This document shows positions 4,180 to 20,000 of a DNA stretch of 20,000 bases, piece by piece. A program made the position numbers and the translations under genes. Position 1 is the first letter of the stretch. Each line of letters opens with the position of its first letter. The DNA is from an uncultured virus (IMG/VR IMGVR_UViG_3300044637_001305) (Duplodnaviria > Heunggongvirae > Uroviricota > Caudoviricetes). The stretch is from the IMG/VR virus record IMGVR_UViG_3300044637_001305; one strand, written 5' to 3'. The notes under the pieces are model-generated. The model made no database searches, had not been told where the DNA came from, and was given only the letters and a program-made list of their open reading frames with translations.

Positions 4180-4240
4180 TATTTATCTAAAAATAGGTAT
4201 TTATAAACTAAATATTTTTTTTAACATATTTATATAAATA
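4180..4240 (+). promoter_or_regulatory. Cluster of three TATTTAT motifs (putative phage late promoters)
   Basis: TATTTAT at 4180, 4198 and 4227. The last is part of the perfect palindrome TATTTATATAAATA (4227-4240). Confidence 0.6.
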
Positions 4241-4253
4241 AAACGATTTGATG
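4211..4253 (+). repeat. 43-bp leader repeat, copy 2
   Basis: AATATTTTTTTTAACATATTTATATAAATAAAACGATTTGATG; two mismatches to 1043-1085. Confidence 0.9.
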
Positions 4254-7927: not shown

Positions 7928-7953
7928 ATAAAATTATCAAATATTTATTGTAA

Positions 7954-10464
7954 ATGAAAAAGAGTTTACAAATAAGTGAGGAAGAAAAAAGAACTATTCT
8001 CATAAAATATAATTTATTAGAAGATTCTAAAAAAGAACCTAAAATAAAATCAATATCTTGTTTAAAGGATGACCCAAATGGTGCAACTGCGTCTGATTGT
8101 ACTATCGTTTATAAAAATGGTAATAAATTTGAAGGTCGTTTAAAAAATGGATTTCCTGAATTAGGTAAGTTTACATTTTCTGACGGGCACTTTTATGAAG
8201 GTTCATTTGCTGGTACTACAAGTCATAGTAAGATTCATTATTCGGGTGATGCTATGGATGCAAACCGAAGAAGGGTTGTTAACACAGAAGATTTATTGTT
8301 GTATCATGAAGAAAATTACGATCCGGAAGAGGTTATTGACCCAACAGACAATGAAGAAATAGAACAGACAAATACTGATGGTGACAAAGTAGTTTACGAC
8401 GAAAAAGAAAAAAAAGTTATTATTCCTGCAAGTATAAAATCAAAATGGAAAGGTTGTGGCACACAGGATAAAGATTTCTATTTTGATGGTACTATGGGTT
8501 CAACCGATTTAGGTTATTTGTTGGAACCACCTGAGATGGGTAACGCAAAATATGAAGGTACTTTAGAATTAGAAGAAGTCTTATTTGGTAAGACGATTAA
8601 ATTCACAGGTTGTTTTGATAAAAACAATATGATTTATGGTGAAGAGTCTGGTGGAAGAGGTAATTTTGAAGGATACTATTATACTGAAGATGTAAGTAAA
8701 AAATTTTTTAGTGGTGATGTAGGTAAAGCCAACAAATTCATGTATGGTAAATTATCTAATAACTATGACTATGAATTTTATAATGCAGTATGGGCCTACA
8801 CTGGTTTTTTTGTTAATGGTAAAATAGACGGTACCTCAACTGAAATACCTGCAGGTTTTGATGAAACTAAATTTGGATCAATATTGTTTGGTGATAATAA
8901 TCGGTATGACGGAGACTTTAAAGGGGGTAAAATAGAAGGTAAAGGTGTTTTCTATTTTTCAGACGGTATGAAACTTGAGGGTGATTTTAAAACCGAAGAG
9001 GCTGAAGAAATCACGATGAGTGTAATAACAAATGGCGGTAAATATATATCAGATATTTTTGAATATAATCGTAATTACAAAGAGTCGGAAAAAAAACCTG
9101 AAGAAGACAAAGAATTAAAAACAATAGGAGCGGTTAAAACTTCAACATTCAACGGTAAAACATTTTTCAAATTTCAAGTAAAAAATCAAAAAACTGGTAG
9201 TGATAAAGATTTTAAAAATTTATTAGGAAAAGTTTTTATAAGAATAACAAATAAATCAGATAGAAAAATATTTTTTGAAACAACTTCAGACGAGTTTGGA
9301 TCTTTTAAAATAGATAATGTTCCTTTCGGAACTTATAAGATTTTATGTGTTCTTGGTAATAAAAGAAACGGATTCTTATTTAGGAAAAAAGATTTTATAA
9401 TTGATAAGGGTAATGAAAAGGTAAGCATATTTTTAAAACCTGTAAGAAATACACTTAATTCAATTAATAATGAAATTAAGAGATACGAAAAATCAACAAA
9501 AAAGAATGCAGATGGTAAAAGAATTGATTATTCAGGAGATGAAATAATGGATTTCTTTTCAATGACAAATGACGAAATGAAAGAGTACTTAAAAAATAGT
9601 ATTAAAACAGAAACAAGTACGGGTAATTGGGTTTCTGATATGGTTGCCGGTAGGTTTGAAAAAAAATACGGAAAAGTAACAACAAAAGAGGCCTGTTTAA
9701 GGGAATTTAAAGATTATGCCGATATTATCAGAAAAATACAAAATGGTGAGATAAATTTAGAAATACTTAAAACGCCTGGAAATAATTTACAACCAACAAA
9801 AAATTATTTGAAGGACTGTCTTAAAACTTATGGTAATCAAATAACAGACAAAGAAGATGTAAAAATTGTAATGAATCCACCAGGAGAAGCATACGGTTTT
9901 GGGGTAAGATTAGAAAATAATAATAAACAAAATATTTATAAAGACATGGCACTTTCAAGAACAATTAATAAAGTAGTAACCGAACACGCAGACAAAAAAA
10001 AGTCTTTAATTCAAGAATCAAGAATTATTAATAATAGACTAAGAACAATTACTGAAAGCTTTAATTTAAATCGTAAATCGGAGAGAAGATTAGCGTTTAA
10101 CGAATTAAGAAATGAAAAAATAAAATTAATAAGTTTGGGTTACGATAGAAATATTGTAAAAGAATCGTTCATTGAGGTTATGAAAAGTTTATTTGGTAGT
10201 TCAGGTCAAGATCCTGTTAGTGACTTTAAAAAAGGATTAAGTGAAAAATTATCAACACCGATAGATTTGAAAGTGATTGCGAATGAACTTGATGCTGCGA
10301 TTATAGAAGAAGCGTTTAAAACTGAAAACCCAAAAGATTTAATATTAGAAACCATAATAGAAAAAATAAAAGAAAAGATAGATCCACAAATTGATGTTGT
10401 ATTTCAAAATATTAATAAAAAAATGGATGACTTTCGCAATGCCGTTGGCGGATTACAAGTATAA
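7954..10464 (+). CDS. MORN-repeat-containing protein with a prealbumin/CarboxypepD_reg-like beta domain and a helical C-terminal domain
   Basis: MORN-like repeats YKNGNKFEGRLKNG, FSDGHFYEGSF, FGDNNRYDGDFKGGKIEGKGVFYFSDGMKLEGDFK. TTSDEFGSFKIDNVPFGTYKI fits the CnaB/carboxypeptidase-regulatory-like signature. TATTTAT at 7942. Confidence 0.7.
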   Translation: MKKSLQISEEEKRTILIKYNLLEDSKKEPKIKSISCLKDDPNGATASDCTIVYKNGNKFEGRLKNGFPELGKFTFSDGHFYEGSFAGTTSHSKIHYSGDAMDANRRRVVNTEDLLLYHEENYDPEEVIDPTDNEEIEQTNTDGDKVVYDEKEKKVIIPASIKSKWKGCGTQDKDFYFDGTMGSTDLGYLLEPPEMGNAKYEGTLELEEVLFGKTIKFTGCFDKNNMIYGEESGGRGNFEGYYYTEDVSKKFFSGDVGKANKFMYGKLSNNYDYEFYNAVWAYTGFFVNGKIDGTSTEIPAGFDETKFGSILFGDNNRYDGDFKGGKIEGKGVFYFSDGMKLEGDFKTEEAEEITMSVITNGGKYISDIFEYNRNYKESEKKPEEDKELKTIGAVKTSTFNGKTFFKFQVKNQKTGSDKDFKNLLGKVFIRITNKSDRKIFFETTSDEFGSFKIDNVPFGTYKILCVLGNKRNGFLFRKKDFIIDKGNEKVSIFLKPVRNTLNSINNEIKRYEKSTKKNADGKRIDYSGDEIMDFFSMTNDEMKEYLKNSIKTETSTGNWVSDMVAGRFEKKYGKVTTKEACLREFKDYADIIRKIQNGEINLEILKTPGNNLQPTKNYLKDCLKTYGNQITDKEDVKIVMNPPGEAYGFGVRLENNNKQNIYKDMALSRTINKVVTEHADKKKSLIQESRIINNRLRTITESFNLNRKSERRLAFNELRNEKIKLISLGYDRNIVKESFIEVMKSLFGSSGQDPVSDFKKGLSEKLSTPIDLKVIANELDAAIIEEAFKTENPKDLILETIIEKIKEKIDPQIDVVFQNINKKMDDFRNAVGGLQV
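9946..10464 (+). CDS. Possible nested in-frame product (172 aa, MALSRTINKVVTEH...)
   Basis: TATTTATA at 9933-9940 followed by an in-frame ATG at 9946, with spacing close to that of the real gene starts at 7954, 10584 and 17856. Confidence 0.45.
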   Translation: MALSRTINKVVTEHADKKKSLIQESRIINNRLRTITESFNLNRKSERRLAFNELRNEKIKLISLGYDRNIVKESFIEVMKSLFGSSGQDPVSDFKKGLSEKLSTPIDLKVIANELDAAIIEEAFKTENPKDLILETIIEKIKEKIDPQIDVVFQNINKKMDDFRNAVGGLQV

Positions 10465-10506
10465 CGGTAGAAACTTTGGGTAGAATCTTAGTTTCATAAA
10501 CCTTAA

Positions 10507-10531
10507 AGAAAGGGAGGTGTTCTAAATCTAA
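10507..10531 (+). promoter_or_regulatory. Orphan extended Shine-Dalgarno-like element complementary to the Bacteroidota 16S rRNA 3' tail, followed by ATC-TAA
   Basis: AGAAAGGGAGGTGTTCT versus AGAAAGGAGGTGTTCC, the reverse complement of the Bacteroidota 16S end (...GGAACACCUCCUUUCU, recalled from memory). Confidence 0.5.
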
Positions 10532-10532
10532 G

Positions 10533-10564
10533 AAAGGTGTTCCGAAAGGGATACCTTTTCTTTT
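10533..10564 (+). terminator. Rho-independent terminator
   Basis: Stem AAAGGTGTTCC / GGGATACCTTT (two G-U pairs), GAAA tetraloop, then TCTTTT. Confidence 0.8.
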
Positions 10565-10583
10565 ATTAGGGTATTTATTATAT

Positions 10584-10940
10584 ATGGAATTTAATATCAG
10601 AAAAAGGGCAACGTTACCATATTTAGAAGTTGATTTGTTTAAATCAGGTAGATTAGATTATAATTTTAAAAATACTAACTTATCTGGATCAACAATTTAT
10701 TTGTATATGAAAAATGTTGAGACGGGGATATATAAAATCGCTAAAGGTGTTTGTGTGTATTCACAAGAAAATAATTCAATATATTATCAATTTACAAAAA
10801 AGAATACATCAGATATTGGTAGGTTTGAGGTTGAGTTTAGGGTGTTAAACAATCAAGGTGAAATTATTTTACCATTAACTGAAAAAATATTTGTTAATAT
10901 TTTGGAGTCTTTTTCAAATAGTGATTTTTGTTGTTCATAA
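10584..10940 (+). CDS. BppU N-terminal-like (baseplate upper / fibre attachment Ig-like) protein
   Basis: Pattern F.I...ATLP.L...LSG.TI...MK...IYYQF..NTSDIGRFEVEFRV...GE..LP; lies directly before the tail fibre. TATTTAT at 10572. Confidence 0.6.
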   Translation: MEFNIRKRATLPYLEVDLFKSGRLDYNFKNTNLSGSTIYLYMKNVETGIYKIAKGVCVYSQENNSIYYQFTKKNTSDIGRFEVEFRVLNNQGEIILPLTEKIFVNILESFSNSDFCCS

Positions 10941-10974
10941 AAATCACAAAAAACTATTTATTAAATAAAATAGA

Positions 10975-13900
10975 ATGGCTAATAAAAAAATATCGGAATT
11001 ACCATATATTAACGGTGGTGAAATATCAGGAAACACTTTGGTTCCTTTGGTTACTTATTATAGTGCCACGACAGGTGATACTGTACACACATATATAACA
11101 GACTTACAAAATTATTTAACTAGTGGAATAACAGGATTAACAGGAAGTACTCTTGTTGGTGACTTTTTACCTTTAAGTGGTGGTACAGTAAGTGGACAAA
11201 CATTTTTCACTTCTGGTGTATCAATAACTGGAGATACTCTTATTGTTGATCCATATGGAAATATTAGTGTGGACACAACAAGTAGGACATTGTATGATAG
11301 TGCAGGAAACCTTGTTGTTGATTGGATTAACTTAGAATTATTAGATTCGACAGGTGTGTCAATTAATTGGGCATCTAGAGTTTTATCAGATTTTTTTGGT
11401 GGCCCTTCTATTGAATGGCAAAATAGAAAACTTTATAAATCAGGAGGAACCTTATCTTTTGATTGGGAAAATGGAATATTGACAGGTCAAACAAATATTG
11501 AATCCTCAACAATATCAGCAACAACTTATCAGAATTTACCAATAAGTGGATTAACGGAAGGAAACAACATCAATATAAGTGGATCTAACGGTAACTATAC
11601 AATATCAGTTACAGGGTCAACATCAACCGTAAGTGGGGATTTTTTACCATTAAGTGGTGGAACAGTAACGGGTAATACAAGTTTTACTCAAAATATATCT
11701 GTAACAGGAGGAACCGGAACCAATTGGTTTAGTGGGAACACTTCTACAGATTTATTAAGAGTAACTCAAACAGGAACAGGAAATGCTTTTGTTGTTGAGG
11801 ATTCAACAAATCCCGACACAACACCGTTCATAATAAACTCAGCAGGCACAACAAATATTGGATCAACAAATGTTTATACCGACCCATCAAATTTAGCAGC
11901 AAAATTACAAGTCTCTAATGGTGTTTTTGGTGGATCATTATCTGGGTTAGTATCATCTACAACGGCCCTCATACAAGCAAACACAACTAATTCATTAGGG
12001 TTATTATCACCAAACGCGAATACCTCAACATTATACTTTGGAACTCCGTCAGATGTTTATGGGTCAATAATGCAATGGCAGTATACTAGTAAAAGACTTT
12101 ATTTTGGTACCCAATCAAGTAATGGTGAAATAAGGTTTACCACCGATAATGGTACGGAAAGAGTTATATTTGACGAAAATGGAAATGTCGGTATAGGAAC
12201 TTTAACTCCAACAGAAAGGCTTAATGTTTCGGGTAACGTATTAATAAGTGCTAATTTAACCGCAACAACAATATCGGCAACAACGTATCAGAATTTACCT
12301 ACAGCAACTTTTTCAGGAGGAACCGTTACCGGACCAACAATTTTCACAAACGGTTTAACTGCGAACACAATTTCTGCAACTACCTACCAAAACTTACCTG
12401 ATAACGTTATAGGTAAATACCTACCTTTAAGTGGTGGTACAGTAAGTGGGGCGACTAAATTTTTGAGCGGGTTAACTGCAAATACAATAAGTGCGGATAC
12501 TCTAACTGTTACCGATAACATTAGTTCAACTAATAGAACATTATATCGAGCAACCCCACTAATTGGGTTTTCAGAAAGTGTTGATTATGGAAATAGTAAA
12601 TTATGGGGTGTAAATGCCCCATCAATTGATTGGGAATTAAGACAAATTTACGATGAACAATCAACAATGGCTATTAATTATTCTGGAGTTACAAGATATT
12701 TGATAGATGATATTGGTCAAACATCTGTAGATTGGCAGGCAAGAAAATTATACACCACTATTGGTCAAGAAGTTTTTGATTGGGAAAATGGAATATTAAC
12801 AGGTCAAACAAATATTGAATCTTCAACAATATCTGCAACAACATATTTAAATTTACCAACATCTAACGTAACAGGAGATTATCTACCATTAAGTGGGGGA
12901 ACAGTAACAGGAGGAACAATTTTTAATAGTGGTGTTACGGCAAACACCCTTAATGTTACAGGATTAACACAAACAAAGGGAATAACATCAACAGGAGGAA
13001 TTACATTTAAACAAGTAACTATTAATGGCTCGTATACCGCAACTACCGATGATTATATGATTGACGTTACGGGAGGAACATTCACCGTTTCTTTACCAAC
13101 CGCAGTTGGGGTACAAGGAAGATTAATTGTTGTAAAAAATAATGGTGGTGGTGCGGTAACCGTAGATCCGTTTGGTAGTGAGACTATTGATGGTAAATCT
13201 TTTATAATTTTAGGTGAGACAAACTCAATTCAATTGGCAAGTAATGGATCCGAATGGGTTGCTTTAGGATATAATATATCAACAGTAAATTCATCGACAG
13301 GTGTATTTGAGTTTACGGGTTTATCAATTGCATCAACAACAACATTTAACGTCGCACCTGTAAAGGGGTGGATTGTGGACGACACAACGAATCCTTTAAG
13401 TCCTCAACTTTATTATGTTGATTATAGTGGTGGAACACATACCGCAACATATGTCAATACATCAACAGAGACTTGGGTATATCTTACAAGTGGTGGTACT
13501 ATTAGTCAATCAAATATTGAGTTAACTGAACAACAGAGAAGACAAAATATATTTTTAGGTAAGTTAGGACACGCAAATAAAACAAATATTATTAACGCAT
13601 TTAGTCAACCTGATTTTGTGTTATCACCATTATCTCAACTTAGGGATATGTTTACACCTATTAATCTTATAAATGGAGGGATATACGCATCCCCCAATGG
13701 TGTTAATTTAAGTTTTAATACAAGTGCCGGTTATCTTTATGGTTTAGGTATTAATTTTGCTAATGACACGTTAAATCCTAACTCATTATATGTGTCAGGA
13801 ACCACCCCTTGTACTTTTCAATATAGAACACAAACAGGCGGTACCGCATCAAATACAACATCTATTGACCCTACTAAATGGGATGTTGGTGGAGTTGTTA

Positions 13901-15561
13901 CGCTAATTTCAGGTACAAAAGCAACCAACCAAAGAATTTATTTGGTTCAAAACGGTATATTTAGAGTTCAATATGGTCAAACAGAATATAATCAGTTAAG
14001 TGCGGCAATTGAAGGTATTGCAACAGAACAATTTAACACATTTAGTAATTTTACAAATAATGGAATTTTAATTGGTGTATTATCTGTTTTGAGTACCGCA
14101 ACTGATTTAAGTGACACTTCTAAAGCACGATTCTTTTTCACATCAAAATTTGGTGAGACTGTTGGGGCTGCTGGAGGAATTTCAACAACGACACTCCAAC
14201 AAGCATATAATAATTCGGTAACTCCTGAAATAACCACTAATTCTACATTAGGTCCATTAAGTGTTAAAAATGGTGCTGGAACTGCAGATAACGTCACAAA
14301 CGTATTTGAGGGTGTAAATTCAGGAGGAACGACAACATCATATGTCCGTGCTGATGGTTTTATTAGTGGTAATTCGTTAAACGCACCTAATTTAATTATT
14401 TCAGGTGGAACACAATCAATATTTTCGGGTAATAGTTCTTCAGATTTAGTAAGAATAACACAAACAGGAGTAGGAAATGCGTTTGTGGTTGATGATTCAA
14501 CAAATCCAGACTCAACACCATTTGTTATAAATTCTGGTGGTAGTGTTTCAATAGGAACCACAAGTGTATTTTCTGTTGGTGGTGGTGCAGAAACTAAATT
14601 AAATGTATCAACAGGATCATCTGGCGTGGCAACAACAGGACTATCCGTTTCAACGCCTGTAATAATTGAGTCAACAGTTGGTACAAGTATTGGTTTATTT
14701 AATCCAGATGTTGCAAATTCACAAATGTATTTTGGTACACCATCAGATGCGTTTGGTGCTTTTTTAAGATGGGATTACACAAATAGAAATTTAATTTTAT
14801 CAACCGCAAATGGTACTGGTAAGTTAATTTTCCAAACGGCCAACGCTGTTGAAGCGGCAAGAATAGATCAAAGTGGTAATTTTGGGATTGGTCTTACAGG
14901 TGCAACACAAAAATTTGAGGTTAGTGGTAATTCTGTACTAAATGGGTCTGTAACTGCAGGAACTACAACTATAAATGGTAATTTAACGGTAACAGGTAAT
15001 ACGAATGTAAGGGCATTTACCGGAACGACGGGTTACATTTCAGGGTCAGGTCAAAATATTCTAACTGTTATTGGTTCTGGAAATTCAACAACTTCACCAT
15101 TATTTTCAGTTCAAGGATCAAACGGTGAATTATTTAGTGTTACCGATAGTTTGGTTGGTTCATTATTTAGTGTGAATGATATATCAGGATTACCGATTTT
15201 AGAGGTATTTTCTGATAATACAACATTGATAGGTTCGTATCTGGCACCATCATTAAATACAACAACAAAGGTGACTTTAACTGCCGGAACAAATACCGTT
15301 TATTCAATTCCAACAAGTGCGTACACAGGGGCATTTATTGATTATACGTTAGTTAGTACGGGAACAACGGGAGCAAGAGCGGGAAACATTATGACAATAT
15401 GGAGTGGAACAACCGCACAATACACAGAAACATCAACAAACGATATTGGTAATACCGCTGGTGTAACATTCTCAGTTGCGGTATCAGGAAACAATGCGGT
15501 TCTTAGTAGTTCGGCAACGACTACCGGATGGACATTAAAGACAATTGTGAGGAGTATATAA
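10975..15561 (+). CDS. Long tail fibre / adhesin-like structural protein
   Basis: 1528 aa, extremely T/S/G/N-rich. N-terminal KISELP motif, four (F/Y)LPLSGGTV junction motifs, four TISATTYxNLP motifs, GNVGIGT..P.E.L.VSGN motifs typical of phage fibres. TATTTAT at 10955. Confidence 0.8.
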   Translation: MANKKISELPYINGGEISGNTLVPLVTYYSATTGDTVHTYITDLQNYLTSGITGLTGSTLVGDFLPLSGGTVSGQTFFTSGVSITGDTLIVDPYGNISVDTTSRTLYDSAGNLVVDWINLELLDSTGVSINWASRVLSDFFGGPSIEWQNRKLYKSGGTLSFDWENGILTGQTNIESSTISATTYQNLPISGLTEGNNINISGSNGNYTISVTGSTSTVSGDFLPLSGGTVTGNTSFTQNISVTGGTGTNWFSGNTSTDLLRVTQTGTGNAFVVEDSTNPDTTPFIINSAGTTNIGSTNVYTDPSNLAAKLQVSNGVFGGSLSGLVSSTTALIQANTTNSLGLLSPNANTSTLYFGTPSDVYGSIMQWQYTSKRLYFGTQSSNGEIRFTTDNGTERVIFDENGNVGIGTLTPTERLNVSGNVLISANLTATTISATTYQNLPTATFSGGTVTGPTIFTNGLTANTISATTYQNLPDNVIGKYLPLSGGTVSGATKFLSGLTANTISADTLTVTDNISSTNRTLYRATPLIGFSESVDYGNSKLWGVNAPSIDWELRQIYDEQSTMAINYSGVTRYLIDDIGQTSVDWQARKLYTTIGQEVFDWENGILTGQTNIESSTISATTYLNLPTSNVTGDYLPLSGGTVTGGTIFNSGVTANTLNVTGLTQTKGITSTGGITFKQVTINGSYTATTDDYMIDVTGGTFTVSLPTAVGVQGRLIVVKNNGGGAVTVDPFGSETIDGKSFIILGETNSIQLASNGSEWVALGYNISTVNSSTGVFEFTGLSIASTTTFNVAPVKGWIVDDTTNPLSPQLYYVDYSGGTHTATYVNTSTETWVYLTSGGTISQSNIELTEQQRRQNIFLGKLGHANKTNIINAFSQPDFVLSPLSQLRDMFTPINLINGGIYASPNGVNLSFNTSAGYLYGLGINFANDTLNPNSLYVSGTTPCTFQYRTQTGGTASNTTSIDPTKWDVGGVVTLISGTKATNQRIYLVQNGIFRVQYGQTEYNQLSAAIEGIATEQFNTFSNFTNNGILIGVLSVLSTATDLSDTSKARFFFTSKFGETVGAAGGISTTTLQQAYNNSVTPEITTNSTLGPLSVKNGAGTADNVTNVFEGVNSGGTTTSYVRADGFISGNSLNAPNLIISGGTQSIFSGNSSSDLVRITQTGVGNAFVVDDSTNPDSTPFVINSGGSVSIGTTSVFSVGGGAETKLNVSTGSSGVATTGLSVSTPVIIESTVGTSIGLFNPDVANSQMYFGTPSDAFGAFLRWDYTNRNLILSTANGTGKLIFQTANAVEAARIDQSGNFGIGLTGATQKFEVSGNSVLNGSVTAGTTTINGNLTVTGNTNVRAFTGTTGYISGSGQNILTVIGSGNSTTSPLFSVQGSNGELFSVTDSLVGSLFSVNDISGLPILEVFSDNTTLIGSYLAPSLNTTTKVTLTAGTNTVYSIPTSAYTGAFIDYTLVSTGTTGARAGNIMTIWSGTTAQYTETSTNDIGNTAGVTFSVAVSGNNAVLSSSATTTGWTLKTIVRSI
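11458..11541 (+). repeat. 84-bp intragenic direct repeat, copy 1 (copy 2 at 12775-12858)
   Basis: Both copies encode FDWENGILTGQTNIESSTISATTY(Q/L)NLP; about 7 mismatches by manual comparison. Confidence 0.85.
11728..12237 (+). repeat. 170-codon duplicated fibre module, copy 1 (copy 2 at 14422-14931)
   Basis: Both run FSGN.S.DL.R.TQTG.GNAFVV.DSTNPD.TPF.INS.G ... YFGTPSD..G....W.YT ... GN.GIG......VSGN, and both are 510 nt. Confidence 0.85.
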
Positions 15562-16260
15562 ATGAGTTTCAATTATTCACCAAAAATCATTACCGACGGA
15601 CTAGTATTATATTTAGATGCGGCGAATATACGTTCATACGTTTCCGGTTCAACAACATGGAATGATATAAGTAGAGTTGGAAATAATGGTAATTTAATTA
15701 ATGGTCCTACGTTTAATTCTGCGAATGGAGGATCAATTTTATTTGATGGGTCAAATGATTTAGTTGAAATAACAAACTCAACCTCATTAACTTCTTTTAC
15801 TATATCAATGTGGTTTAAAATGACGGGCCCCGGTAGTACCGGAGGTGCTTCAAATACTATTTATAATTCTTTATTTGGGATTAATAGTGGACTTAGACGA
15901 ATACTAGTATCGACATCGGCCAATACGGGAACCGAAGGTTTAATTTTAGTACAAATGGGTGGATCAAATTATTTTAGTTCATCATCCACGGCTACAGTAA
16001 CAAATCGTTGGAATAATGTTGTTTATACTTGGCAATCAAATACTGCTATTATTTATATAAATGGAATTGCTGAAACACCTCAAACAAATAGTAGTGTTAC
16101 ATTTCCTGCCGCTAATTTATTTTTAGGTGCGTATAGTAATCCGGTGGTGGCGTATGCGATGAAAGGAAACATCGCTCAAACCTCTATATATAACAGAGTT
16201 CTTTCTGCCACACAAATTTTACAAAACTATAACACACTAAAAACAAGATTTGGATTATAA
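15562..16260 (+). CDS. LamG/concanavalin A-like lectin domain protein, paralog 1 (putative receptor-binding)
   Basis: TDGLVLYLDAAN..SY.SGSTTWND...NGPTFNSANGGSILFDGSND...FTISMWFK...IYING...IYNRVLSATQILQNY. Starts immediately after the fibre stop. Confidence 0.8.
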   Translation: MSFNYSPKIITDGLVLYLDAANIRSYVSGSTTWNDISRVGNNGNLINGPTFNSANGGSILFDGSNDLVEITNSTSLTSFTISMWFKMTGPGSTGGASNTIYNSLFGINSGLRRILVSTSANTGTEGLILVQMGGSNYFSSSSTATVTNRWNNVVYTWQSNTAIIYINGIAETPQTNSSVTFPAANLFLGAYSNPVVAYAMKGNIAQTSIYNRVLSATQILQNYNTLKTRFGL

Positions 16261-16922
16261 TGGCAGGAAATGTTGCACCAAATATGGTTACAGATGGGTT
16301 GGTCTTATATTTAGACGCAGCAAACACTAAATCATATGTTAGTGGTAGTACCAGATGGAATGACATATCAACCGGAGGTAATAATGGGTCTTTAACTAAT
16401 GGACCAACATTTAATAGTGGAAATGGTGGAAGTATTGTGTTTGATGGGACTAATGATTATGTGATAGGTAGTATACCTACAATAACTAATTGGACAATGT
16501 GTTTATGGTATCTTTCAACAGACATAATATCCCAACCAGTTTTCTATCCATTTGGAGGGACATCAGGTGGAAATGGTTTAGGATTTGGTGGAACTTTCTC
16601 AATAGATACAAACAATAGATGGTACTTTTTTGACGGTTCTGCTATCTTTAGTAATATATTAATGTCTGTAGTTATAAATAAGTGGTATAATTTAGTTGTC
16701 ACTAAAAATTCAACAACATATAATCTATACACTAATGGTCAACTATCAATGAATACAACTGGTGTGGATTTAACATACACACAATATACTTTAGGAAAAA
16801 GAGGAGATGTCTTTGGAGGATATGCTAAAGGAAATATTTCTAATGCATCTCTTTATAATCGATCACTCTCCGCATCTGAAGTCCTACAAAACTATAACGC
16901 AACTAAAGGAAGATATTTATAA
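16260..16922 (+). CDS. LamG/concanavalin A-like lectin domain protein, paralog 2
   Basis: Same N- and C-terminal signatures as paralog 1; TAATG stop/start overlap. Confidence 0.8.
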   Translation: MAGNVAPNMVTDGLVLYLDAANTKSYVSGSTRWNDISTGGNNGSLTNGPTFNSGNGGSIVFDGTNDYVIGSIPTITNWTMCLWYLSTDIISQPVFYPFGGTSGGNGLGFGGTFSIDTNNRWYFFDGSAIFSNILMSVVINKWYNLVVTKNSTTYNLYTNGQLSMNTTGVDLTYTQYTLGKRGDVFGGYAKGNISNASLYNRSLSASEVLQNYNATKGRYL

Positions 16923-16924
16923 TT

Positions 16925-17191
16925 ATGGAAACACAAGAATACCCAAACAGAGAATTTATGATATTCAACGTATCAGAATTAAACACAATAGACTTTACAC
17001 AAGTCTTAGAAACATCAATTGATACGGTTAGAAGATCTGTTGACGGAACAAAGACATTTGTAAAATGGGATGGAAATACAACACCATCAAGTGTTGATAA
17101 TTTAACAACAAAGGAAGGTCCTTATACATATGATGAAATATTAACAATATTGGGTGGTCCTGAATGGACTTCAAATGATGAATTAATATGA
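16925..17191 (+). CDS. Small acidic hypothetical protein in the fibre cluster (possible fibre assembly chaperone)
   Basis: 88 aa, IDFTQVLETS.DTVRRSVDGTKTFVKW..GPYTYDEIL..L..PEW. TATTTATA at 16914; ATGA overlap with the next gene. Chaperone role inferred from position only. Confidence 0.7.
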   Translation: METQEYPNREFMIFNVSELNTIDFTQVLETSIDTVRRSVDGTKTFVKWDGNTTPSSVDNLTTKEGPYTYDEILTILGGPEWTSNDELI

Positions 17192-17841
17192 GTACGGTAC
17201 AAGGTGGACCAAGAAATATTGTAACTAATGGGTTAGTGTTGTATTTAGATGCCGCTAATCCTCGTTCATATATTAGTGGTTCTACCGTATGGAATGATTT
17301 AGCAGGAACAAATAACGGGACATTAATAAATGGGCCTACATTTAATTCTTCAAATGGTGGAAGTATTGTATTTGATGGTGTAGATGATTTTGTAAGTGGA
17401 TCTTGTACTACTGTCAATGCGAATGTTGGGATGACAACTTTTATTTGGGTTAGGACTACAATAACGTCCCCTCAAGTTTTTTTTAGTTGTACTTCCGGTG
17501 TAAATAATGGTTTTAGGTTAGAAATTGACGGGGGTCAATTTTTACTTACCTTTGGTGGTGTTGCTAATTACTCATCAGGAAATAGTGTTTCTGATGGGAA
17601 TTGGAAGCAGTTAGTAGTTACAACAGTCGGAACAACAGGAAGAATTTATATAAACGGAAATTTAGTCGCCTCACCAACAGTGGGAACAATGCAGGGAACA
17701 CCGAATCAATTTGTAATAAGTGGTTCAACAATAAGATTTTTAAATGGTAATGTTGCATCCGTTATTTTATACAACCGAGCACTCTCCGCATCAGAAGTCC
17801 TACAAAACTATAATGCAACTAAATCACGTTTTGGTCTTTAA
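17188..17841 (+). CDS. LamG/concanavalin A-like lectin domain protein, paralog 3
   Basis: VTNGLVLYLDAAN...NGPTFNSSNGGSIVFDGVDD...IYINGNL...LYNRALSASEVLQNY. Confidence 0.8.
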   Translation: MSTVQGGPRNIVTNGLVLYLDAANPRSYISGSTVWNDLAGTNNGTLINGPTFNSSNGGSIVFDGVDDFVSGSCTTVNANVGMTTFIWVRTTITSPQVFFSCTSGVNNGFRLEIDGGQFLLTFGGVANYSSGNSVSDGNWKQLVVTTVGTTGRIYINGNLVASPTVGTMQGTPNQFVISGSTIRFLNGNVASVILYNRALSASEVLQNYNATKSRFGL

Positions 17842-19149: not shown

Positions 19150-19175
19150 AAAAAAACCCACCTGTGGAGGTGGGT
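19150..19175 (-). terminator. Rho-independent terminator on the minus strand (probably for the tmRNA transcript)
   Basis: Minus strand reads ACCCACCT-CCAC-AGGTGGGT followed by TTTTTT. Confidence 0.75.
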
Positions 19176-19219
19176 GAAATTTTACTCATTTCCTAAATAT
19201 TTATATATAAAATATAAAT

Positions 19220-19622: not shown

Positions 19623-20000
19623 TGGTGGACCTAGAGGGCTCCGACTCCCTCGTCCGGCTCATCTTGTTTAAAAGACGACTACATGTTTAGGTTGGCATTT
19701 TCTAATACCCCAAAATATTTGATTTTTGTCTTGACCAAAAACAAGGTTAATTTGTTCTTCACTATCGTAAATTAACAACCAATAGACCATTCAATTTCGG
19801 GTTTAATGGTAATCCACCTTAGTCACTTCTGTTCCTGAGCGTATGTGAACCGGCTCGCGTATCCGTAAACTTATTAAGCTACAGTTACTTCTTGAGTTGA
19901 GATTAGACCCAAAGTCTCAAGGTTGTTTAGCACATTGCCATTTGTAGTGTGAATCAGTTTTTAACGAGATTAATTCAGTCCCGACATGCTTCTTTTATTC
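19623..20000 (-). ncRNA. ssrA: tmRNA (5' end lies just beyond the window)
   Basis: Minus-strand 3' end GGAC-GAGGG-AGTCGGAG-CCCTC-TAGGTCC-A-CCA (U at position 70, A discriminator). Helix 2 halves AAAAGA-A-GCATGT and ACATGT..TCTTTT. pk1: CGGGA/TCTCG with TGAATTA/TGATTCA. Tag frame follows pk1 and ends GCT TAA TAA. Confidence 0.9.
19874..19939 (-). other. tmRNA tag reading frame: (A)GNVLNNLETLGLISTQEVTVA*
   Basis: Resume codon GGC after ACAAAT, downstream of pk1; 21 codons then TAA TAA. Resume codon assigned by position. Confidence 0.75.

Follow-up and report, generated by a model that had tools for sequence, protein, structure and literature searches.

A conserved Shine-Dalgarno-like RNA element of large freshwater phages as a candidate mimic of host rpsU initiation regions

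The DNA considered here, a stretch of 20 kb from the uncultured virus IMGVR_UViG_3300044637_001305 (Caudoviricetes) that we call the window, carries between two genes a structured element that spans about 10433-10565. Its centre is an extended Shine-Dalgarno-like (SD-like) stretch complementary to the 3' tail of 16S rRNA, followed by AUC UAA in place of a start codon and then by an intrinsic terminator. Our preferred reading, to which we assign a probability of roughly 0.45, is that the element is a mimic, without an open reading frame (ORF), of the initiation region of the host rpsU gene, and that its RNA would bind the anti-SD tail of the ribosome and so intervene in the circuit that controls ribosomal protein bS21. 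This reading draws on the observed sequence of the element, its conservation, structure and complementarity to the 16S tail, its likeness to host rpsU leaders, and its co-occurrence with bS21 genes carried by the phages themselves.

The window has 32% G+C, and nearly all of its genes, like all parts of the element, are on the + strand. Upstream, an ORF of 836 amino acids (aa) ends with a TAA stop at 10462-10464; downstream, the conserved gene for a 118-aa protein starts with an ATG at 10584. From 5' to 3', the element consists of an H-type pseudoknot at 10433-10468 (stem S1, 10433-10437 with 10448-10452; stem S2, 10441-10446 with 10463-10468), a hairpin that we call P1 (GAAACT...AGTTTC, 10470-10495), a conserved linker CATAAACCTTAA that contains CATAAAC (10495-10506), the SD-like stretch AGAAAGGGAGGTGTTCT (10507-10523, with its GGAGG core at 10513-10517), AUC UAA at 10526-10531, 8 nucleotides (nt) after the GGAGG, and the terminator at 10530-10564. 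The terminator has its stem at 10530-10562, a GAAA loop at 10544-10547, its 3' arm at 10548-10562 and a T-tract at 10556-10564, which reads TTTTCTTTT as a U-tract; the terminator prediction itself lists 10532-10559 with 12 pairs. A shortened second copy of the SD-like stretch, AGAAAGGTGTTCC at 10531-10543, forms part of the 5' arm. A sequence-only reading of this DNA had already placed the SD-like stretch, its GGAGG, the ATC TAA, the second copy and the GAAACT..AGTTTC hairpin correctly, and was right that no ATG, GTG or TTG stands at normal spacing and that no ORF follows; in the window sequence these three codons are absent between the motif and the terminator hairpin. The element is, however, larger than that reading had it, as the upstream pseudoknot was overlooked.

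The SD-like stretch is the complement of a 16S rRNA ending in ...GGAACACCUCCUUUCU, and duplex energies were computed with the corresponding tail GGAACACCTCCTTTCT, taken from the 16S locus of Prevotella lacticifex. The predicted duplex of AGAAAGGGAGGTGTTCT with GGAACACCUCCUUUCU has an energy of -23.5 kcal/mol and 14 contiguous pairs, two of them G-U, where an extended SD of the rpsU type is characterized by 9-13 or more consecutive pairs. Segments of 24 nt across the 20 kb average -4.5 kcal/mol (standard deviation 2.8), and the next best sites on either strand reach only -16.4 and -16.3 kcal/mol, the latter being the second copy in the terminator. That the motif complements a GAAC-type 16S tail over an extended length, as had been proposed, is thus borne out, the site lying far beyond any other in the window. 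The leaders of 13 window genes give between +0.8 and -8.6 kcal/mol with the same tail, so that the window is SD-poor. The earlier statement that gene leaders here lack SD sequences therefore largely stands, with the exception of the gene that starts at 15562. Its leader (15547-15561) is the sole moderately SD-like one in the window, with GAGGAG 8 nt before the ATG and an energy of -8.6 kcal/mol.

Relatives of the element were collected in three ways. A search with the 118-aa protein gave 12 viral contigs at 58-97% identity, a pattern for the terminator gave 18 viral contigs with one match apiece, and a pattern of two conserved blocks gave at least 120 metagenome stretches, of which 80 were examined as loci, some of these being unrelated coding sequence. 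Requiring the terminator left 82 copies, which reduce to 53 distinct sequences; because some contigs occur in both collections, the copies are not independent. None of the search patterns included the SD-like core. CATAAAC and ATCTAAGAAAGGT were both in the later patterns and are therefore invariant in the large set by construction, but they are invariant as well in the nine distinct sequences found through the protein. The element, found in related phage and metagenome contigs, always precedes the same downstream gene.

In 52 of the 53 distinct copies the core GG(A/G)GGTGTT(C/T) is retained, as GGAGGTGTTC in 32, GGGGGTGTTC in 18 and GGGGGTGTTT in two, with GGAGATGTTC in the remaining one. AUC UAA is invariant, at a distance of 8 nt from the core in 15 sequences and 9 nt in 38. 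A search of five related contigs of 120-281 kb with the pattern GGRGGTGTTY found GGRGGTGTTC exactly once in each. In distant relatives the element is still 78-93% identical in nucleotides to that of the window, as against 69-74% for the first 354 nt of the downstream gene, and over all relatives it holds at 78-96% while the downstream protein drops to 58% identity. Both copies of the motif occur in all 53 distinct sequences, which disposes of the possibility, raised at the outset, of a recent duplication of the terminator arm. To judge by these alignments, the motif is not a chance occurrence. With the GAAC tail, the 53 copies average -23.2 kcal/mol (range -15.6 to -26.2), as compared with -19.5 for a GAUC tail and -21.3 for a GAAU tail, and the variant core with G for A would still pair with U1537, as G-U.

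Three further ideas about the core and its surroundings were considered and dropped. The outlying core GGAGATGTTC, in L007 and L013, raised the possibility of covariation with the Chryseobacterium-type tail (GAACAUCUCA; PMC6107228, Table 2), but the otherwise identical L078 has GGAGGTGTTC; with such a GGAGG twin the outlier is a recent single change. A small ORF running through the terminator is not tenable, as the length of the hairpin loop differs by 1-3 nt among copies and no frame is kept. Nor does the motif serve as a split ribosome-binding site for the 118-aa gene, for with the hairpin removed the gap from SD to ATG is still 29 nt.

Consensus folding with RNAalifold, for 16 as well as for 53 sequences, predicts P1 and the terminator and leaves the SD-like stretch unpaired. 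Overall, 96.4% of the alignment cells at paired positions can pair, as against 88.2% in shuffled alignments and 50-63% in controls in which the partner was slid, and ten pairs have double-sided changes. P1 has eight pairs, six of them with double-sided changes, and 90.6% of cells paired over the 53 sequences, so that the hairpin called weak in the sequence-only reading is present where it was placed and is a helix well supported by covariation. The terminator, which has the makeup of an intrinsic terminator, has 13 pairs, all cells paired and four pairs with double-sided changes. The G-U pairs are compatible with the + strand alone. For the pseudoknot, an alignment (A4) of 24 distinct sequences, picked by eye from 55 distinct upstream contexts, gave 92.8% of cells paired versus 78.5% in shuffles and 23-63% with the partner slid, and within these chosen sequences all 11 pairs of the two crossing helices have double-sided changes. 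All three predicted structures, pseudoknot, P1 and terminator, are backed by compensatory changes. In the window the pseudoknot overlaps the last codons and the TAA of the 836-aa ORF, but in L004 it lies entirely 3' of the stop and in L009 it is retained where the upstream ORF is absent, so it belongs to the RNA element and not to the protein. (In some relatives, such as L009 and L012, the upstream gene, which encodes MORN repeats, is missing, and a homologue of the window's 288-aa gene abuts the element.) Two small local hairpins, CCUU/AAGG and AGGU/AUCU, are also predicted, without any double change, and the second is gone from the consensus of 53 sequences. The single-sequence fold of 10428-10570 has a z-score of -2.5. 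No Rfam 15 family matches at its gathering threshold (the best score is 19.3 bits against a threshold of 80), and the scan of the window gave no match at the element.

The same alignments bear on the suggestion that the element toggles read-through, acting as an attenuator that senses ribosomes. A ribosome with an exposed anti-SD would dock with AUC-UAA in its P and A sites and cover the 5' arm of the terminator, so that the hairpin is kept from forming and transcription continues into the tail genes; in the absence of such ribosomes the terminator would do its work. The geometry is suited to this, since the distances from the SD core to the AUC (8-9 nt) and from the AUC to the stem, which starts 4 nt after it, are fixed and AUCUAAG is invariant, which fits mutual exclusion of a docked ribosome and the hairpin. 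Copy 1 could also pair with the 3' arm of the terminator, in 94.9% of cells, and with the 5' arm blocked this helix is predicted at a mean fold energy of -14.4 kcal/mol. Shuffled sequences reach 95.0%, however, none of these pairs has a double change, and the terminator fold is better by 6.5 kcal/mol on average. There is no leader peptide or ORF of the kind found in ribosome-mediated attenuators, and the coupling would need fast co-transcriptional docking by ribosomes that are normally blind to SD sequences. All 16 sequences for which the alignment (A2) extends far enough have, after the terminator and ahead of the next ATG, a promoter-like TATTTAT that does not vary, and with such a motif of its own the next gene seemingly does not need read-through. 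We regard the toggle as unlikely.

The strongest likeness of the element is to the leaders of rpsU. We read rpsU upstream regions from samples of genomes at the level of phylum, order and family, the last Flavobacteriaceae-like and built around a genome in which the N-terminus of bS21 equals that in PDB 7jil. Of 30 loci in the family sample, 4 could not be parsed; among the 26 others, 25 leaders form duplexes below -15 kcal/mol with the 16S tail, with a mean of -19.6 and a best value of -22.1, and GGRGG stands 9-10 nt from the ATG in 24 of 25. Several host leaders read ...TTAAAGAAAGGAGGTG... or ...CCTTAACGAAAGGAGGTGTCTATATT ATG, and some carry AAGGGAGG or GGGGG, as do variants of the phage core. 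In the phage element the sequence is CCTTAAAGAAAGGGAGGTGTTCTAAATCTAAG, with flank and core as in the host leaders. Outside the part complementary to 16S rRNA, this likeness was compared by eye and without statistics, and there it is suggestive. The earlier idea of a decoy RNA for the 30S subunit survives, and appears strengthened by the resemblance to rpsU.

The published background gives this resemblance its possible meaning. In Flavobacterium johnsoniae ribosomes the 16S tail is buried under bS21, bS18 and bS6 (PMC7797042). No gene but rpsU has an extended SD, and it is ribosomes lacking bS21 that translate it (PMC9976891); a 13-base-pair (bp) SD-anti-SD helix on rpsU mRNA excludes bS21, and in complexes of wild-type ribosomes the helix was formed and bS21 gone in 65% (PMC13000457). 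Phages that encode bS21 infect Bacteroidetes (PMC9723584), and it has been speculated that phages may encode products that aid the exchange of bS21 (PMC9976891).

Whether the phages in question carry bS21 had been left as something to check. Ribosomal_S21 genes of the Bacteroidia type are present in six of the nine related contigs searched, four of five large ones and two of four others. The phage proteins have a length of about 62 aa and either His or Tyr as residue 54; their best match among solved structures is chain z of PDB 7jil (E 9e-13), the ribosome of F. johnsoniae according to Chen et al. (PMC9723584), and all seven genome matches of a phage bS21 profile are to Bacteroidota. The phage bS21 genes themselves have no SD. 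Two or three Ribosomal_S21 matches were seen in 17 of the 41 genomes of the family sample, the extra match being weak in two.

The 16S tails of likely hosts agree with the GTTC of the motif. Within the family sample all 39 tail matches, in 26 of the 41 genomes, read GGAAC, so the phage GTTC fits the likely hosts. The claim that Bacteroidota 16S rRNA ends in GAAC is too broad for the phylum at large. Of 151 genomes in the phylum sample, 38 had a tail match, 12 with GGAAC and 26 with GGATC. Amin et al. (PMC6107228) list GAACACCTCCTTT in 489 of 20,495 tails in their Table 2, and rows of their S2 table give GAAC in Bacteroides, Alistipes, Cytophaga hutchinsonii and Polaribacter and GAAT in Saprospira and Sphingobacterium.

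The tail types also bear on an alternative in which the anti-SD match is secondary and the element has another partner, either as a captured relic of an rpsU leader that serves as a site for a protein (bS21 or a phage regulator) or as a seed for pairing with another RNA. bS21 has been reported to bind a helix in OLE RNA, P6, that mimics the SD-anti-SD duplex (PMC12054373), and the 3' arm of the terminator here (GGGAUACCUUUUCUUUU) is similar to the 16S tail, from which it departs at 6 of 16 positions, in each case by a transition. The conserved pseudoknot, the GUAG of the P1 loop, which is mostly conserved, and CAUAAAC likewise suggest recognition of more than a bare rRNA tail. CCUCC, however, is absent from the element and from the whole + strand of the window, so the element contains no true anti-SD mimic, and a second site with the complement GAACACCYCC was not found in the five related contigs. 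A protein site, moreover, would have no need of the invariant GTTC, through which the complementarity runs on precisely into the GAAC linker in the 16S rRNA of the presumed hosts. We think another partner rather improbable on balance, if less so than the toggle. Beside the absence of CCTCC, the + strand of the window has 19 copies of GGAGG, a strong asymmetry that comes mostly from within a glycine-rich fibre gene.

As for how the RNA would be made, TATTTAT is probably a promoter motif, to judge from its tie to gene starts. Of its 14 copies on the window's + strand, 9 fall within the 1,111 non-coding bases (5.6% of all bases), and 8 of 12 + strand genes have it 4-17 nt ahead of the ATG, at spacings of 4-5 or 13-17 nt. 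The copy next to the element, at 10572-10578 (part of a feature at 10572-10586), lies 5 nt ahead of the ATG of the 118-aa gene at 10584; others in the window are at 7942, 10955, 16914, 17844 and 19198. The motif is also found upstream of the phage bS21 genes. If TATTTAT is a -10-like element, mRNAs with almost no leader would follow from the short spacing to the ATG. Among the 55 distinct upstream contexts there are 11 in which the pseudoknot is replaced by a different hairpin, which begins 4-7 nt after AATATTTAT, the motif also seen at gene starts of the window, and the promoter-like AATATTTAT in front of the element suggests that these relatives have it as a separate small RNA gene. In the copies with their own promoter-like motif, short ORFs downstream of TATTTAT were considered and set aside, for they are present in L012 and L066 and absent in L065, L072 and L075.

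On the reading that we prefer, then, two structured modules at the 5' end, the pseudoknot and P1, and a terminator at the 3' end would frame a loosely structured copy of the rpsU extended SD, in an RNA that in the window would be the 3' end of the late transcript from upstream and in some relatives would start at a promoter-like motif of its own. The SD-like stretch would pair, over as many as 14-16 nt, with the 16S 3' tail that is normally buried under bS21, bS18 and bS6, and with AUC-UAA in place of the start codon no protein would be made. As the extended helix of rpsU is favoured by ribosomes free of bS21 and sterically incompatible with bS21, according to the published work, the phage RNA may do one or both of two things. 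It may compete with host rpsU mRNA for bS21-free ribosomes and so cut the replenishment of host bS21, or it may help to strip bS21 from ribosomes and so favour uptake of the phage's own bS21.

Several observations weigh against this reading. A simple sponge for ribosomes does not account for the conserved pseudoknot, nor for the GUAG loop, CAUAAAC and AUCUAAG, the last of which is invariant. In the ensemble of nested structures of the window RNA, the GGAGG has a mean unpaired probability of only 0.16, and freeing 10507-10522 costs a computed 6.8 kcal/mol, which leaves a net energy of about -17 kcal/mol, still within the range of host rpsU sites. In the single-sequence fold of the window, checked by hand, 4 of 10 core bases are in weak local pairs; a weak local hairpin that touches the motif (CCUU/AAGG plus CAU/GUG, -4.3 kcal/mol) has no compensatory support. 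The 16S tail is occluded in wild-type Bacteroidia ribosomes, which may limit the extent of binding in vivo. No bS21 gene was found in three of the nine contigs searched, of which one is estimated to be 96% complete, one 32% and one 27%, so there is no strict link between the RNA and a phage bS21; in the 27% contig the element lies 12 kb from the contig end, and in a contig of 281 kb the phage bS21 profile gave no match at E values up to 10. Two public sequencing runs share 4-5% of words with the window, but their contigs cover 10231-10363 (an RNA library) and 10482-10660 (probably DNA) and are uninformative on expression or RNA ends. Transcription of the phage RNA, its binding and its effect are things that we infer, as are the hosts, probably Flavobacterium-like Bacteroidia.

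A bolder version would make the element a device for bS21 exchange. Present in high copy number, an rpsU copy without a start codon would pull out the 16S tail, expel host bS21 and starve the autoregulation of rpsU, and the ribosomes would be refitted with phage bS21; in lineages without a phage bS21, ribosomes would be left poor in bS21 and biased toward the nearly leaderless late mRNAs of the phage. We consider this version possible, though doubtful. If it is true, the element would be the first viral RNA known to remodel the protein composition of the ribosome, and would do so by mimicking the pairing of a host mRNA with the rRNA tail. How phage bS21 enters ribosomes is a question that has been raised in print (PMC9976891), and a conserved phage RNA that copies the rpsU docking site without an ORF offers a concrete candidate, open to in vitro tests for which F. 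johnsoniae ribosomes, strains depleted of bS21 and a cryo-EM system are at hand. bS21 genes occur in many aquatic phages, and a single host gene, rpsU, is known to exploit the hidden tail for bS21 regulation.

The surroundings of the element are those of a phage genome. The proteins of the window have few PHROG or Pfam matches, which are phage-like and include a 1,528-aa fibre-like protein, a pyrimidine-dimer glycosylase and a LAGLIDADG endonuclease, and BLASTN of 9800-11200 against records of cultured phages gave no match. A partial tmRNA gene on the - strand at 19623-20000, truncated by the end of the window, matches Rfam RF00023 at 49.8 bits against a gathering score of 47, and the ARAGORN run made no calls, of this tmRNA or otherwise. 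With a tmRNA in the window and bS21 in relatives, the phage group has several translation-related genes. Near-identical blocks of 30 nt at 1050-1082 and 4218-4250 (+ strand), TTTTTAACATATTTAT[T/A]TAAATAAAAC[A/G]AT, stand ahead of the two largest genes with no assigned function (1,032 and 935 aa) and look like a common promoter and leader. Three tandem paralogous proteins of 217-232 aa at 15562-17841 (+ strand) have Laminin_G_3 (concanavalin-like) domains of the virion type and near-identical N-termini (...TDGLVLYLDAAN...), and are probably exchangeable receptor-binding tips. A G+C-rich palindrome at 19156-19176, ACCCACCTCCACAGGTGGGT, which contains GGAGGTGGGTG, lies between the region of the LAGLIDADG gene and the glycosylase gene and scores as a terminator on either strand.

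We have found no published description of such a phage RNA, PMC13000453 included, although subscription journals and supplements may hold one. What appears to be new here is the pseudoknot, the form with its own promoter-like motif, the placement of AUC-UAA relative to host AUGs, the tally of bS21 in six of nine contigs with a near-complete counter-example, the negative covariation test of the antiterminator, and the narrowing of the GAAC claim. The element also adds a class of structured phage RNA, with pseudoknot, hairpin, open SD and terminator, that is outside all Rfam models.

Four known systems invite comparison. In the cry3A mRNA of Bacillus thuringiensis, an orphan SD known as STAB-SD binds 16S rRNA without a translation start and blocks RNase J1 (PMC4113751). 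The phage motif shares with it, in silico, complementarity to the 16S 3' end that directs no translation, and one could suppose that a parked 30S subunit shields from exonucleases either the small RNA or the 3' terminus of the late mRNA that comes from upstream, with no further effect on ribosomes. Besides the cry3A precedent, this view can point to the lack of an ORF here too and to flanking structures that might protect. STAB-SD, however, acts near the 5' end of a long mRNA in a Gram-positive host that uses SD sequences, whereas the phage motif stands at the 3' end of a transcript or in a small RNA, 7 nt ahead of the terminator stem. With the motif only about 10 nt from the terminator, almost nothing downstream is left to protect; hosts that hide the anti-SD would make the device inefficient, and neither the likeness to rpsU leaders nor the AUC-UAA would be explained. 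Of all the explanations considered, a pure stabilizer seems to us the least probable.

OLE RNA (PMC12054373), like the phage element, is non-coding, imitates part of the SD-anti-SD pairing and is linked to bS21. It is, however, a bacterial RNA of 600 nt in which an exact CCUCCU is paired internally and which binds protein, while the phage element, in a window whose + strand has no CCTCC, offers the SD side in the open. The bS21 phages of freshwater Bacteroidetes described by Chen et al. (PMC9723584) are by all signs the same group as ours, large freshwater phages with contigs of up to 281 kb and a bS21 that has about 62 aa and His or Tyr as residue 54. Their paper deals with the gene for the protein, and its abstract and sections 10 and 15 mention no RNA element of this kind.

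The closest counterpart is the extended SD of rpsU itself, part of the autoregulation of bS21 in Flavobacteriales and other Bacteroidia (PMC9976891, PMC13000457, PMC7797042). Both have a long unbroken complement to the 16S tail, of 9-13 bp in rpsU and 14 pairs in the phage, both stand in an SD-poor setting with a similar flank (TTAAAGAAAGG.AGGTG), and the codon that would occupy the P site is at a similar distance, the host AUG at 9-10 nt and the phage AUC-UAA at 8-9 nt. Unlike rpsU, the phage element has no AUG at 7-10 nt and no rpsU ORF but AUC-UAA and a terminator, is encoded by a phage, and is framed by a pseudoknot and hairpin on one side and the terminator on the other, and its match extends further into the GAAC linker than that of the rpsU leaders.

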